Source of the DNA: Escherichia coli
Lineage (GTDB): Bacteria > Pseudomonadota > Gammaproteobacteria > Enterobacterales > Enterobacteriaceae
Assembly (NCBI RefSeq): GCF_041248615.1
Contig: NZ_CP158425.1
Strand: one strand, 5' to 3'
DNA length: 64,000 nucleotides
Shown here: positions 48,001-63,000 of the stretch, in pieces
Layout of the letters: each line of letters opens with the position of its first letter
Numbering within the stretch: the stretch's first letter is position 1
Program-made: the position numbers

Positions 48001-51000
48001 ACATTGCAAAAGCTTTGTCCGTTGCTCTGTACCGGCATTCATCTCCGAAACATTCTTCAACAACGCTGGCTATAACCGTGTCGTGATCGCCATCTTCCGG
48101 AGCTGGCACAAAGATTTCAAATTGTGCCGGTGTCTCCGGCTCCAGCAGAACGGGATATAAACGCGGAGAATTAAGCAATGCGCATTCAGAATTAATGAGC
48201 TTAACCCAGGCGCTTTTGTCGTCCGGATCCTTAAGCTGCTGTCCAAGGTTATCGCAAAAGTCTACTATCTGACGGGTATGCTCATCCGTGACTGCACAGA
48301 TCAGGTTAAGACCATGCGTGGCCATACTCAATTCCCGGGTTCGGGACTGGGAATTGATCGACCAGGGGTTAAGTGAAAGCGAAATAGGGCTTATGGAAGG
48401 GACGACCGTCTCATTCTGCAAATCTGTAAGCTGGCAGTTCGCAGTAGGCTTCGGGGAAAGGGTACTAAATATGTAACTTGCCTGTTGTTTAGTACTGGCC
48501 TGGATATAAAACATCGCGTCCATGCTTGTATCCCGGGATGAAATTGAAAATAGCTTCATTTTTAACCTTAATGGATGAGCGATTTATAGTCATGTGCTGA
48601 CAAATGGACATTATGTGCGCCATCATTCCATTCAAAGAATAATCGATACTTAGAGTTTACTCGAATGGAGGAATAACGGTTTGACGTCATTCTTAAGCGT
48701 TCATAACGCAAGCTGTTGGATAATAACTCCCGCTCACTCTGGACATTATCCAGCGTTTCGAGTCGACACAGAATCGCGTTAATAATTTCAGAAGGAATAC
48801 CTGCCGTTGTTTTTCCATTACGGAAGAACTTTTCAAGCCGTCTGTCTTTAAATGAATGGATCATAGTTCCTCCGTAATAATTGACCTTAAAATTAAATTA
48901 AAAGGGCTTTGAATTAATGAATCCCTAAAATGCGGGCGGCGACTGCCAGCTGCTTATCACTTAACTGACGCTGGTGGGTTAAAGAAGACTTAAGGCTTTC
49001 CAGAAAATTATTACTGCTGGATTGCTGGGTGATTGCATCAACCATTTTTTGATGAGATCTGCACCATGCATTGAACGCAGAGTTGTGGGCGTTTTCAGTC
49101 CTCAAACGCTCGTTTTGCAAGGATGCTGACACTTTGCGGGCAGCTTGAGCATTAATGCGGTACAGCGCATTCAGCGTGTAAGAAGTGCGGGTCGTTTCGA
49201 GGCTGTAACCCGTGGCTTTACAAGCCATACAGCGACTTCTATAAAAATGCTTACGCTCTCCCCGACCATTGCATTTATCGCAAAGAATACGAAAAGTATA
49301 TTCCGCAGTACCTTTTACAGAATCAACACAGCGGATTTTTGCGCTGGAGATTTCAATTCCACTGCGATCATAATATTTGGTCATAATGTGATTCCTCCGG
49401 TTAGTTCTGGAGTAATCATGACAGAATGAATCTACTGGCTAATAACCTGAGAGTAAATATTTTAAAAAAACATTGAGAGAGGGTCTGCAAATTTATACAC
49501 GAAGGATTCAAATATAATTTTGTTTAAAAAATTAAGAGCATTCTGAAGTAAAAGTGCATCAAAAAGCATTCATGGATAAATCATGTACTGGTGCCAGCCA
49601 TTTAAACGCGGGCATTGTTCCGGAGTGATTAAACGGTTTAGCATCATAGATTAAAACCAAAAGGAAGGCGTCCTTCCCGTCTCGGGAATATTACTTTCCC
49701 GTTTGCAATTTAAGAGCCACTTAATGAGAAAGTAATAATTAAGTCATGCTCAACTCTACATATTACATTGAGGATGGCGTAACAGGGTACGGCATACTAC
49801 CGCACCCTTCTGAAGAGCTTATGTTTGAGGGAATTCTATAGCAAATGTGGCCGTGCCAGATTGACCACTTACAGCGGGAGTAACGGGATACGTGCGCTCT
49901 TCACCATTACCAAGATCCAGTGACAGCGATTTAGTTTCACCAGGCTGGACCGTAACTCCGGCAACCGTAACGCCGAACTGGGCATTTTTCTGAACAGTCA
50001 GGGTTCCGTTTAACTGTCCGGTAATGATAGAACCGTCCTGACGCCGCAACACACTGGTTCGGATGATGGCCAGCGGCGTGTTGTCCGTTGCTTTCAGTGC
50101 TACGGCTGTGGCCAGCGTCTTGAGATTATCCAGCATAATCAGATTCGCAGGCTGGTAGGTAAAATTAAGCGTTTTAGTGGTCCGGTTACCTGATTCGTCA
50201 ATAGCCAGTGCCTCCAGATGATACATCTGTCCCGATTCGTCAGTGTTGGGGAAGATTCTGGGGTATTCCGGAATAAAGACATCCTTGGATAACGGCGTGA
50301 ATGCCAGGGTGACCTTTTCAGAGTTAGGTCCACCAGCGAGCTGAAGCGATGTCAGGGAAGCATCCCCAGAGGCATCAGTAACGCTTATGCGAAGGTTCTC
50401 AAGCCCTTTAACCAGTTTTCCTTCTGCGTCTGCGCCATTAAAACTGAACGCGATAACCGGAAGCGTTGAGTCAATTTTCAGCGGTGCATTAAGCGTTTTG
50501 GTTCCGGTGTTTCCAACAAGATCCGTGGCAGAGACGCTAACCACCGTATAATCCCCGTCCGGTAGACCAGCGTATGAGAAGGTGGCGTTTTTGGTTTTAT
50601 AATCGCTTTCACTGACGGTCACAGGCTTCAGCGTGAAAGGTTCCCCCCGGGCATTTTTAAGGGTGGCTTCGAAAACTTTGGTATCCCAGTAGCTGATGTT
50701 CCAGGCGTTGACGCGATCATTATCGGTGGCCGTCATAGTGATTGTCTTGGAGGCCTTGTTTACCTGAGCGACATTAACCACCGGTGGGTTGTTATCCCAG
50801 ATAACCGTAAAATTACCAGCAAGCGCATCGAATATGCTGTCACCATCTTTTCCCGAGTAAAGGTGCAGATACTCAAATCCTTTGTCACTGGTGTAGTTGA
50901 AGTTAACCGTCATCTCGCATGAACTTTGTCCGATAGGTATAGTGCAGAACCAGGCTGCATTTTTTACCGTTCTGAACTTTTGCACGTATGGTCGGGGTTC

Positions 51001-60000: not shown

Positions 60001-63000
60001 CTGTGCGGAAGGATGCAGCCTTCGGTATTAAATTTAATGGGGCACAGGCGGCTCCAGGCGAGTCAGTTGAGGTGCAAATAGATATGGGCCAGGGGGATAA
60101 TCTTCTGTTACCCGTTTATCCTTCCGAAAATGGGAAAGTTGGCACCTCAGAATTCATGATTCAGATCGACGAGTTGAAGTAACTACCCGGAGCCGACAGT
60201 AAAACTGACGGCTTCAATTTTACTGCCCTCCTCGACTCCGATCAGCCAGTACGTCTTCAGAGATTCGCAAGGAAGAACCGAAAGAAAAGTTACTTTAATC
60301 GTACGTTTCCAGCGATGCTTTCAAAAGACAATGCATACTCGTTGATTACGACAATGGGAGTGAGTGTCGAACCCCTTGAGTAAGGATACTTGGTAAATAT
60401 ACAGCCCCGGGGATTCTCTTCCTTCAACCGGGGATGACAACGGGAGTGAGTCCGGCAACTCACACCTGTTGTCACTTCTCTGACATATCGTCATACGAGC
60501 TTACTCAAGCGCATCCACAAAGATGGGATCGTTTTGAATCTAAACTGGTACTGGTTAGCCAGTCACTTGCATCTACTCCCCCGTCGATATTTAAGTGACA
60601 ATTGTAGTGATCTGCAATACTGGTGTCTCAGAAACACTGACGACGGTAGAGACTCAATACCCTAACCCCTGACAACAGAAGTGAGCTTAGAGGTGTTACG
60701 CTGCTGTCACCTAATGCTTGGGAATTGCCTGACTCACAACCATTGTCATCCGGAGCTACTGATTAACGTTGAACCGCTGGACTTTAATGACAGTGGTAGT
60801 GATGGATAGGCTCATTTCCATTGTCGTCATTTTATCGGACAAGCCTCTTCGTCCTACAGGTTTAAGCTGACAATGGTAGTGATTGGATGATCTCACTACT
60901 GTTGTCACTCAGTTCTTTGAGCGGACCCTTCCCTCGGTTGGTCGGCATTAACAACGGTAGTGACTCGATTGGCTCACTGCCATTGTCATCGTGTAAATGA
61001 CGTACCTTATCAGCTCAGCTGAAAGCAATGACAACGGTAGTGACTCTAATTGCTCACTGCCATTGTCGTCGTGTCTATTGAGAGCCTTATCAGTGCACCT
61101 GAAAAGCAATGACAACGGTAGTGATTCTAATGGCTCACTACCGTTGTCACCGTGTGTATTGAGAGGATGGTCCACCTAACTGGACGTATATGACAATGGT
61201 AGTGACTTTAATAGCTCACTACCATTGTCGGTGTGTGAATTGAGAGGATGAGCAGCTCAGCTGTACGTCCATGACAATGGTAATGACTTAATGAGCTCAC
61301 TACCGTTGTCACCCTGTTAATTAAGAGGCTCATCTGCTCTTCTGGAAGGCTATGACAACGGAAGTGACTTGCTGGGCTCACTGCCATTGTCGCCGTATGA
61401 ATTGAGAGGATCATCCGCTCTTCTGGATGGCAATGACAACGGTAATGACTTAATAGGCTCACTACCATTGTCACCCTGTGAATTGAGAGGATGATCTGCT
61501 TAACCAGACGGCCATGACAACGGTAGTGACTTTCTGGGCTCAATACCGTTGTCACCCTGTGAGTTAAGAGGTTGACCCGCTCTACTGGACGGCCATGACA
61601 ACGGTAGTCACTTTCTGGGCTCACTACCGTTGTCACCCTGTGAGTTAAGAGGTTGACCCGCTCTACTGGACGGCCATGACAACGGTAGTCACTTTCTGGG
61701 CTCACTACCGTTGTCGCCATATAGAATGAGAGGAGCATCAGCTCAACTGAACGGCAATGACTACAGTAATGAGCTGGATGAAGCATAACCATTGACATCT
61801 GGCCCAACCGGAAGCCGTATTCGCCAATCCAATCGAGATTCACAATGGCCGTGACTCGCCGCATTAAGTTCCGGTGTCCTCCCAAAGCTGAACGCACACT
61901 CGGAGGACAATGACAATGCCAGTAAGGTACACATCATTACCATTGTCACTATAGCTACCAGAGAAGCCGGGATTTGAATGTCGATGGTAGTGAGTGGGTC
62001 AACTCACTGCCATTGTCACCCCGTTACGATATTTTCCGTTGGATGTACTGGCCAATGAAGTAAAGCGTAGAAACCGGGTGTTAACAGGTGACTCAGGAGA
62101 AAGCGTTGAATTTCGCAATCTCGATCTACATAGGGTGGTAGAGAACAATGACAACGGTAATGACTTTTGACTCATTACCGTTGACGTGAAAGAGCGGGCT
62201 GGGACTAACGAAAATCGAAGAAGTAATTTAGCACCCGGAGCCTAAACCGCCGGGTTAACTTTAGCTGGCGTTGCTGTTCTTTTTCTGGCTTCGAAGACTA
62301 CGAATATAGCGCAGTTCTTCAGCGGTTAAATCATGGACGGTAAGAACATCATCGCCGTCAATCGGGTCAGCTGGTGGGCATAACTCACCTTCTAAAACAG
62401 AAGACCCTGAGTTCTCTTCTTCATCTTCAACCACTTCTAAAGGAGGCTGAGTATTGTTCAAATTCAGATCGGGATCCCGCTTATGAATCTGGAAGTATAC
62501 TTTTCCGTCTTTCTTAATTTCGGTGTACTTGAGGTATCCTATCGATGCCAACTCTTCAAGAGCCTTTCTCACGGTAGCATTCTGACTATTTGCTCGTGTT
62601 TTGAGGTTCAGACGATTTTTCAGCCGAGTAAGGGATATCGGTATAGGATTTGGCGGTAATGACTCTATGAACGTATAGAGAGCCTGGGCGCTTTCCTTCT
62701 TGGCCAACTCCTTAATTGCCTTCAGCTGCATCAAAACCTTATGATCGTATTGATAGAGCTCGAAAATCTTAGGATCAACCTGAAGGACAACCTGATCTGA
62801 TTCCGGGTCTAACAGGGCAGACTGTACCAGATGCGTTGTATAGACTTTGGACGAGTTATTACTGGTGAACGACAAGGTAACGGATGCTAACCTGCGTAAG
62901 GAGGCGTCTATACGTTTTCTGGACGCTGTAGATGAGCGATAATTTTCAGGCGTACATAGCTTGAGGAATTCAGTGAATTTTAAGCTTATCGTGTCATTGT

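Follow-up and report, generated by a model that had tools for sequence, protein, structure and literature searches.

The IncHI1 plasmid R27 encodes RSP2 (open reading frame (ORF) R0055), a protein of 794 amino acids (aa) in which a DUF4165 domain (residues 23-142) is followed by a Big domain (143-254) and a Big_3 domain (537-693) (Huttener et al. 2022, PMC8730810). RSP2 has been detected in both periplasm and secretome, with export that requires TrhC and, in part, RSP, and it binds flagella and pili; deletion of rsp2 lowers liquid mating about 100-fold (PMC8730810). The Big protein of the IncA/C (IncC) plasmid pKAZ3 (ALG87338.1) is also secreted, and is required for low-temperature conjugation. 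IncHI2 plasmids have been described as lacking rsp2, which is strictly correct, yet omits three intact immunoglobulin-like (Ig-like) IncHI2 proteins of the same architecture. Two of these, which we call Ig-A and Ig-B, are encoded in the 64,000-nucleotide stretch of Escherichia coli DNA analysed here (NCBI RefSeq assembly GCF_041248615.1, contig NZ_CP158425.1). This whole stretch is referred to as the window, and coordinates are window positions unless another record is named.

The genes of Ig-A (49819-52209, minus strand; 796 aa, WP_000694550.1) and Ig-B (57762-60182, plus strand; 806 aa, WP_000681217.1) lie in divergent orientation. An original prediction, made from the DNA alone, had proposed two secreted paralogues of about 800 aa at this place, with signal peptides and the same order of beta-rich blocks, and our analysis bears this out. 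The reading frame of Ig-A extends over 49819-52236, and its start was set at the ATG at 52209 by a Shine-Dalgarno sequence (AGGAG) and the RefSeq annotation. BLASTP aligns the two proteins over their full length (about 800 residues) with 29% identity (E value 1e-87), a likeness that we take as true homology, beyond shared composition. Both are laid out as a signal peptide, DUF4165, Big_3_2, central beta-sandwich domains, Big_3_3 and a conserved C-terminal domain. The Pfam matches all score above the cut-offs, with E values of 4e-13 (DUF4165), 2e-26 (Big_3_2) and 1e-41 (Big_3_3) for Ig-A, and 3e-14, 1e-27 and 2e-65 for Ig-B; NCBIfam has no family for Ig-A, Ig-B or the small ORFs between them.

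In both Ig-A and Ig-B the N-terminus combines basic residues with a hydrophobic core and an A-x-A site (ASA|EI for Ig-A and APA|QI for Ig-B). Diverse homologues share this type of N-terminus, and both proteins are predicted in silico to be exported via Sec-type signal peptides. No other hydrophobic or transmembrane-like segment was found in either protein. Each has two cysteines, which form one Cys-x8-Cys pair that is at least 90% conserved across the family, and all the residues that are invariant family-wide are present in both.

Over their full length, Ig-A is 39% (E 1e-174) and Ig-B 32% (E 5e-107) identical to R27 RSP2, and with the common DUF4165-Big_3_2-Big_3_3 module of about 800 aa this similarity places both proteins in the RSP2 family. 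RSP2 resembles them in length class, domain content, signal peptide type, Cys pair and C-terminal domain, it comes from the same plasmid family and the same replicon-proximal neighbourhood, and its gene is divergent to a B-type gene, as that of Ig-A is in IncHI2. It differs in that the divergent pair is split by 5.5 kilobases (kb) of genes in IncHI2, and in its phylogenetic position relative to Ig-A and Ig-B, which is described below. The original prediction had likened the two proteins to the large Ig-like proteins of IncHI plasmids. This holds for the RSP2 family, but not for the 1432-aa RSP family. R27 RSP (R0009), an interaction partner of RSP2, is also a secreted, beta-rich IncHI protein with a Big_3-type domain, and it shares with the Ig proteins a local EPRxYVQ...C-x8-C domain match (28% over 93 aa, E 5e-6). 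It has a different size, contains neither DUF4165 nor Big_3_2, shows no full-length homology and is encoded in the AN operon of Tra2. Membership of Ig-A and Ig-B in the RSP family was rejected, since only the 93-aa match is shared and the genes lie near repHI2 and not in Tra2.

The third intact IncHI2 paralogue, Ig-C (818 aa), occupies DNA from about window position 64457 onward, which is outside the window and on the far side of repHI2 (IncHI2 locus coordinates 5512-7968). It shares 41% identity with Ig-B and 82% with an R27 gene that is interrupted by the insertion sequence (IS) IS30. From these comparisons we recognise four paralogue lineages in IncHI plasmids, A, B, C and RSP2-type, clustered around the replicon. 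Lineage A is intact in IncHI2 (Ig-A), and no copy was found in the 40-kb block of R27 examined. Lineage B is intact in IncHI2 (Ig-B) and a pseudogene in R27, where it carries an in-frame TAG and a 17-base-pair (bp) deletion, is annotated as two fragments (R27 block 15630-17250) with 86% and 74% identity, and begins about 250 bp from the start of the divergent rsp2. Lineage C is intact in IncHI2 (Ig-C), its R27 copy being the one interrupted by IS30, and the RSP2-type lineage is intact in R27 (RSP2), with none found in IncHI2. By this count IncHI2 holds three intact family members, versus one in R27.

In a neighbour-joining tree Ig-A and its alleles are sister to the RSP2 clade, while Ig-B and Ig-C form a separate deep clade; we regard Ig-A and Ig-B as anciently diverged. 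The 39% identity, shared indels and the tree could make Ig-A the orthologue of RSP2, an assignment that was rejected on the evidence of the IncHI1B plasmid pR17.4855_328k. This plasmid has four members: an A-type, a C-type and a B-type gene, and an internally deleted RSP2-type remnant. Its A-type gene is 61% identical to Ig-A and 38% to RSP2, and the remnant is 92% identical to RSP2. The presence of both in one plasmid indicates that Ig-A and RSP2 are sister paralogues, and Ig-A is not a strict orthologue of rsp2. The 39% identity between Ig-A and RSP2 is also far below the 61-90% of the flanking backbone proteins of IncHI2 and R27. In both R27 and pR17.4855_328k no island separates the B-type gene from the RSP2-type gene; the two are adjacent and divergent, with a gap of about 225-250 bp. 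The A-type and C-type genes of pR17.4855_328k form a tandem.

Two further family members (841 and 804 aa) were found on an unrelated 161-kb contig, where they are convergent and separated by one gene (contig coordinates 8001-14338), so multi-paralogue clusters recur outside IncHI. A Dam-like methyltransferase gene and umuDC-like genes lie near these two paralogues.

The setting of Ig-A and Ig-B was determined by comparing the 12 kb at 49000-61000 with plasmid records. This query matched 1144 records, of which 977 cover at least 80% of it, with at least 95% identity in nearly all. Many complete plasmids, from E. coli, Salmonella, Klebsiella and Enterobacter, match it with 100% identity. A representative match, pM160133_p1, is typed as IncHI2A, MOBH and MPF_F; it allowed repHI2 to be placed at 62261-63349, and it annotates both Ig-A and Ig-B as 'Ig-like domain-containing protein'. 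The window is IncHI2 plasmid backbone, and the identical matches, together with the typing and annotation of pM160133_p1, show that the Ig locus is a conserved part of it that was already annotated generically. Given that Ig-A and Ig-B are annotated in more than 1000 plasmids, what the present analysis adds is the four-lineage structure and the three intact copies of IncHI2 against the one of R27.

Losses within the family could mean that Ig-A, Ig-B or both are redundant, ride along with the backbone without a present function and are decaying as in R27, which has lost its B copy (in-frame stop and 17-bp deletion) and its C copy (IS30 insertion) and has retained transfer. The internally deleted RSP2-type copy of the IncHI1B plasmid and the IS elements found inside the 12-kb region in a few IncHI2 records point the same way. 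We nevertheless judge this very unlikely, as both 2.4-kb reading frames are intact and at least 99% identical in about 1000 IncHI2 records, the family-wide invariant residues are all kept, and the structure model described next is highly confident.

An AlphaFold2 model of Ig-A, built on a 74-sequence alignment, has a mean predicted local distance difference test (pLDDT) score of 91.5 and a predicted template modelling (pTM) score of 0.78. It opens with an N-terminal helix, in which the low confidence of residues 13-20 fits a signal peptide, and continues as an all-beta chain, in agreement with the beta-rich blocks first proposed. From the strand pattern Ig-A is predicted to be a chain of about seven beta-sandwich domains, and the modelled tandem beta-sandwiches correspond to the bacterial Ig-like fold. 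The fold matches (Foldseek) were chains of Ig-like domains in tandem, such as those of S-layer proteins, RTX adhesin extenders and PrgB, and no catalytic fold was found among them. Searches with the whole chain returned only generic Ig-chain matches with low template modelling scores, and the sequence search for a solved structure related to Ig-B found none. PrgB, the aggregation substance of the Enterococcus plasmid pCF10, is likewise a plasmid-encoded surface protein with Ig-like domains, and promotes mating-pair formation in liquid. It differs in being an LPXTG-anchored Gram-positive protein with a polymer-adhesin domain, and with no sequence homology the likeness is by analogy only.

The matches to adhesin and S-layer-type Ig chains, the location of the Ig genes outside the tra operons, in the replicon region, and their variable central domains would all suit general surface adhesins, or biofilm or colonisation factors, that aid the host cell and affect conjugation indirectly. 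The distribution of the family argues for another role. A profile search of 1.84 billion cluster representatives gave 3131 relatives at E <= 1e-3 and 242 at E <= 1e-30, in two size classes of about 800 aa and about 1820-1870 aa, the long class being of the IncC/IncA/C type. By tblastn the module is present in 3050 of 72,556 plasmid records, 2736 of which are typed conjugative, and the family is confined essentially to MOBH/MPF_F conjugative plasmids. IncC carries the module inside its tra cluster, conjugation phenotypes have been measured directly for R27 RSP2 and for the IncA/C protein, and neither Ig-A nor Ig-B has an outer-membrane anchor, a lipobox or an autotransporter domain. An adhesin role serving the host cell is on balance unlikely.

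In the IncA/C Big protein and its homologues (about 1830-1843 aa), the DUF4165, Big_3_2 and Big_3_3 module makes up the N-terminal 800 aa or so, and is 25-26% identical to Ig-A over 95% of the Ig-A length. These proteins are longer than Ig-A and Ig-B by a C-terminal stretch of about 1000 aa that contains PKD domains. They are present in single copy per plasmid, and in one IncC plasmid the gene (1828 aa) lies in the tra cluster between traA and dsbC-traC.

The divergence between Ig-A and Ig-B is unevenly spread along the chain. Identity is 35% in D1 (DUF4165), 40% in D6 and 41% in the C-terminal domain, but 14-20% in the middle domains D2-D5. The D1 of RSP2 is 59% identical to that of Ig-C, 47% to that of Ig-B and 35% to that of its sister Ig-A, although outside D1 RSP2 is closest to Ig-A; this pattern hints at domain exchange or gene conversion among the paralogues, or at an accelerated change of the Ig-A N-terminus. 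The alleles of the A type range from 99% down to 53% identity across plasmids, and more distant relatives have 31-38%. Several deeply diverged lineages with hypervariable middles, such a range of alleles and the decoration of both pili and flagella by R27 RSP2 could reflect an arms race, with the proteins forming a protective coat or exclusion layer that masks pili and flagella from phages specific for them or from redundant mating. We give this explanation very little weight: the phenotype measured in R27 is a loss of transfer and not a gain of phage sensitivity, and exclusion is already the task of dedicated IncHI proteins such as eexB.

The explanation we favour, and hold to be fairly likely, is that Ig-A and Ig-B are two of three intact IncHI2 proteins of the RSP2 family that act in conjugation as follows. 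Each would be made with a cleavable Sec signal peptide, as recognised in silico, and enter the periplasm, where it is predicted to take the shape of a rod, made up of about seven beta-sandwich domains and containing one disulphide. Its release to the surface or the medium would depend on the plasmid's MPF_F type IV secretion and pilus machinery, by analogy with R27 RSP2, whose export needs the type IV secretion ATPase TrhC. Outside the cell, the protein would bind the conjugative pilus and flagella, cut motility and stabilise the contact between donor and recipient, and transfer would be raised as a result, especially in liquid at 25-30 C, as R27 RSP2 and the IncA/C homologue suggest. The conserved ends (D1/DUF4165, D6 and the C-terminal domain) probably serve a shared docking or export function, and the divergent middle D2-D5 probably gives each paralogue a distinct binding specificity. 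Again by analogy with R27, the Ig genes are probably expressed in step with the transfer regulon (HtdA-TrhR/TrhY, low temperature), and the AAAGTWACTTT site that precedes Ig-A is a candidate for the cis element of this control. The genes themselves belong to the replicon-proximal backbone and not to a mobile island.

The conserved Sec signal peptides suggest a two-step export, via Sec into the periplasm and then by release dependent on the type IV secretion system, which is consistent with the detection of RSP2 in the periplasm and has not been discussed before for these proteins. Such a route would be analogous to the export of pertussis toxin by the Ptl system.

The sequence AAAGTWACTTT recurs far beyond the Ig genes. 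The window has 19 AAAGTNACTTT sites, and 39 matches on both strands if up to one mismatch is allowed, versus 1.8 expected. Sixteen sites have an A or T centre (4423, 7483, 7968, 12829, 14559, 19461, 24510, 24636, 31629, 35149, 37880, 42929, 47141, 52345, 58062 and 60286) and three have a C centre (7042, 11391 and 51310). Although 74% of the annotated span is coding, 13 of the 16 A/T-centre sites are intergenic, and 10 of these 13 lie 82-222 bp upstream of a gene start; sites occur on both sides of the intergenic region upstream of mobI. The conserved extent is that of the palindrome alone, aAAAGTWACTTTt (13 bp), and no -35/-10 promoter hexamers were found at a fixed distance from it.

At the Ig locus, the site AAAGTTACTTT at 52345-52355 lies 136 bp upstream of the Ig-A start, in a 403-bp AT-rich intergenic region, and the copy AAAGTAACTTT at 58062-58072 lies inside Ig-B, with the centre of the 11-mer 305 bp into the gene, in codons for KKVTL; both had been reported in the original prediction. 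The R27 pseudogene and the B-type gene of IncHI1B (site about 305 bp in) have the motif at the same internal position as Ig-B. A second AAAGTTACTTT copy follows 104 bp after the Ig-B stop codon (60286-60296), and B-type genes in R27 and IncHI1B also have a site just after the stop, at 47 bp and about 114 bp. The C-centre variant AAAGTCACTTT is found inside Ig-A (51310-51320, about 894 bp in), and at the corresponding place in the A-type gene of IncHI1B, about 890 bp in (pR17.4855_328k locus 9259), AAAGTWACTTT occurs without a mismatch. Upstream of the C-type gene, motif sites lie at 157 and 222 bp in IncHI2, 188 bp in R27 and 187 bp in IncHI1B.

In the backbones of IncHI1, IncHI2 and IncHI1B the same motif recurs about once every 3-4 kb, versus about 0.05 expected per 40 kb. 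One 40-kb block of R27 has 8 sites and another has 13, against 0.05-0.06 expected. In the R27 Tra2 block examined, sites stand upstream of several tra genes and several are inside genes; rsp has two sites within the gene and one in the rsp-trhP intergenic region, a region that has promoter activity (PMC7366339). The motif is present at the IncHI1B locus, and absent from the IncC locus and the two unrelated loci examined. A literature search for the motif string returned nothing relevant, and the R27 regulation paper describes no binding motif. That work reports that in an R27 htdA mutant at 25 C, and not at 37 C, rsp2 (R0055) is raised 9.7-fold and the C-type gene (R0045) 8.4-fold, like the tra genes (PMC7366339 Table S4). 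Our hypothesis is that the motif acts in cis in a regulatory circuit spanning the whole plasmid; this circuit may be HtdA-TrhR/TrhY, because 139 of the 181 expressed R27 genes are derepressed in the htdA mutant.

Several points weigh against the conjugative role favoured here. The breadth of the htdA derepression means that the induction of rsp2 and the C-type gene is not specific evidence, and Ig-B has no motif upstream. The functional data come from R27 RSP2 and the IncA/C homologue, not from the IncHI2 proteins, and as Ig-A is a sister paralogue of RSP2 (39%), not its orthologue, the transfer of function crosses paralogues. The B and C copies of R27 are inactivated and R27 still conjugates, so those lineages are dispensable there. 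The signal-peptide call for Ig-A and Ig-B is heuristic, and the favoured route would have to take a periplasmic 85-kDa protein across the outer membrane.

A more extended model may be drawn from the same material, which we regard as possible but doubtful. The four ancient replicon-flanking lineages would form a set from which each IncHI subgroup has kept its own selection, and the retained members would tune which surface structures of donor or recipient are engaged, and with them mating efficiency or host range. Their conserved ends would serve docking or export, the middle would be hypervariable, and the genes would be wired together by (A)AAAGTWACTTT(T) as the HtdA-TrhR/TrhY cis element.

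The region between Ig-A and Ig-B had originally been described as a bracketed island of about 5 kb with ten small genes, one of them for an adenine methyltransferase. A gap of 5.5 kb does lie between the genes, and ten is an approximate count, as there are 8 RefSeq-annotated genes and 1-2 further small ORFs. The region is not, however, a discrete or mobile unit. At the DNA level no inverted repeats were found between the Ig genes beyond chance matches of 18-23 nucleotides, and all-against-all BLASTP found no paralogy between the small genes of its two arms. A mobile island and a recent inverted duplication were both rejected, given the lack of inverted repeats, the 29% identity of the two proteins and the conservation of the region as backbone. 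The recurring theme is the cluster of paralogues around the replicon, the bracketing being an IncHI2 arrangement and not a functional unit, and the methyltransferase and small genes are neighbours of the Ig genes and not part of one machine with them.

The left arm (52613-54381, minus strand) is upstream of and co-directional with Ig-A, and has ORFs of 83, 80, 85, 145 and 174 aa, for which no Pfam family was found. The 85-aa ORF (53072-53329, minus strand) is unannotated and overlaps the annotated 80-aa ORF (52897-53139), and one of these two overlapping calls may be wrong. It has a weak ribbon-helix-helix/NikA-like match (E 0.019) and a plausible beta-strand-helix-helix pattern, and could be a small DNA-binding regulator. 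A central AT-rich divergent intergenic region (54382-54701) separates this arm from the right arm, whose genes, on the plus strand, precede Ig-B and share its direction. The right arm begins with a 254-aa hypothetical protein (54702-55466), 61% identical to a 257-aa protein of R27 (R27 block 22249-23022), and after the methyltransferase gene it continues with an 87-aa protein and a hypothetical protein of 195/203 aa (56402-57297, plus strand). The 87-aa protein is 67% identical to an 86-aa protein of R27; no homologue of the left-arm ORFs, the methyltransferase or the 203-aa gene was found in the R27 block examined. Terminator-like hairpins were detected by a consensus scan only, one 3' of the Ig-A stop codon (49662-49678, minus strand) and one between the right arm and Ig-B (57391-57411, plus strand); the latter suggests that Ig-B has its own promoter within 57412-57761. 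Scans for sigma-70 promoters and terminators gave counts equal to those of shuffled sequence and hence were uninformative.

The methyltransferase (55547-56308, plus strand, in an ORF open from 55484; 253 aa) is an orphan amino-methyltransferase of the gamma class, in which a motif I-like EPEFGDG (within VLEPEFGDG) precedes motif IV, NPPF (within VIVMNPPF). It matches Pfam N6_Mtase with 27.4 bits, above the cut-off of 20.4. Among proteins of solved structure its nearest relative is M.TaqI (E 1e-6), a gamma-class enzyme with the same order of motifs. It differs from M.TaqI in having only 253 aa and no TaqI-like C-terminal recognition domain, and no recognisable target-recognition domain of any kind, nor an adjacent nuclease or restriction partner, was found. 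At more than 90% identity it is confined to IncHI2-type plasmids. Its relatives at about 30% identity over the catalytic core are class I S-adenosylmethionine (SAM)-dependent methyltransferase/DUF4942 proteins, common on IncF/IncI-type plasmids and likewise orphans. The likeliest reading is that of an orphan DNA adenine methyltransferase; given comparable weak matches to protein methyltransferases of the HemK/PrmC type, the N6-adenine specificity is plausible but not proven.

Beyond Ig-A, a gene for a RelE/ParE-family toxin (48568-48864, minus strand) forms a pair (47378-48864) with a 393-aa ORF that directly follows it and is named 'flavin reductase' by RefSeq, from a shorter start. No obvious small antitoxin was seen beside the toxin within this region, and the pair is kept in R27 with 90% and 63% identity. 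On the other side, a unit of 81 bp is repeated in tandem about 10 times between Ig-B and repHI2 (60944-61772), and one of 21 bp about 4 times upstream of repHI2 (63589-63667). Both presumably serve the RepHI2 replicon as iterons or in copy control, and the repeat array accounts for long spurious ORFs with repeated peptides near the replicon. The window is collinear with NZ_CP022165.1 except at 15700-35600, where it lacks the IS66 element and the ISApl1-mcr-1-PAP2 module of that reference, and where its DNA at about 32-35 kb, including a 296-aa ORF (32575-33465), is different.

Among resistance genes of the last line, mcr-1 and others have IncHI2 plasmids as major carriers. Blocking transfer with antibodies and nanobodies has been proposed, with the IncHI Ig-like proteins as their surface targets (PMC11268884). 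The functional work so far has been done on R27, which keeps one intact family member, RSP2, whereas IncHI2 keeps three, one of them sister to RSP2. Interventions and mechanistic models based on R27 therefore need to be tested against Ig-A, Ig-B and Ig-C.

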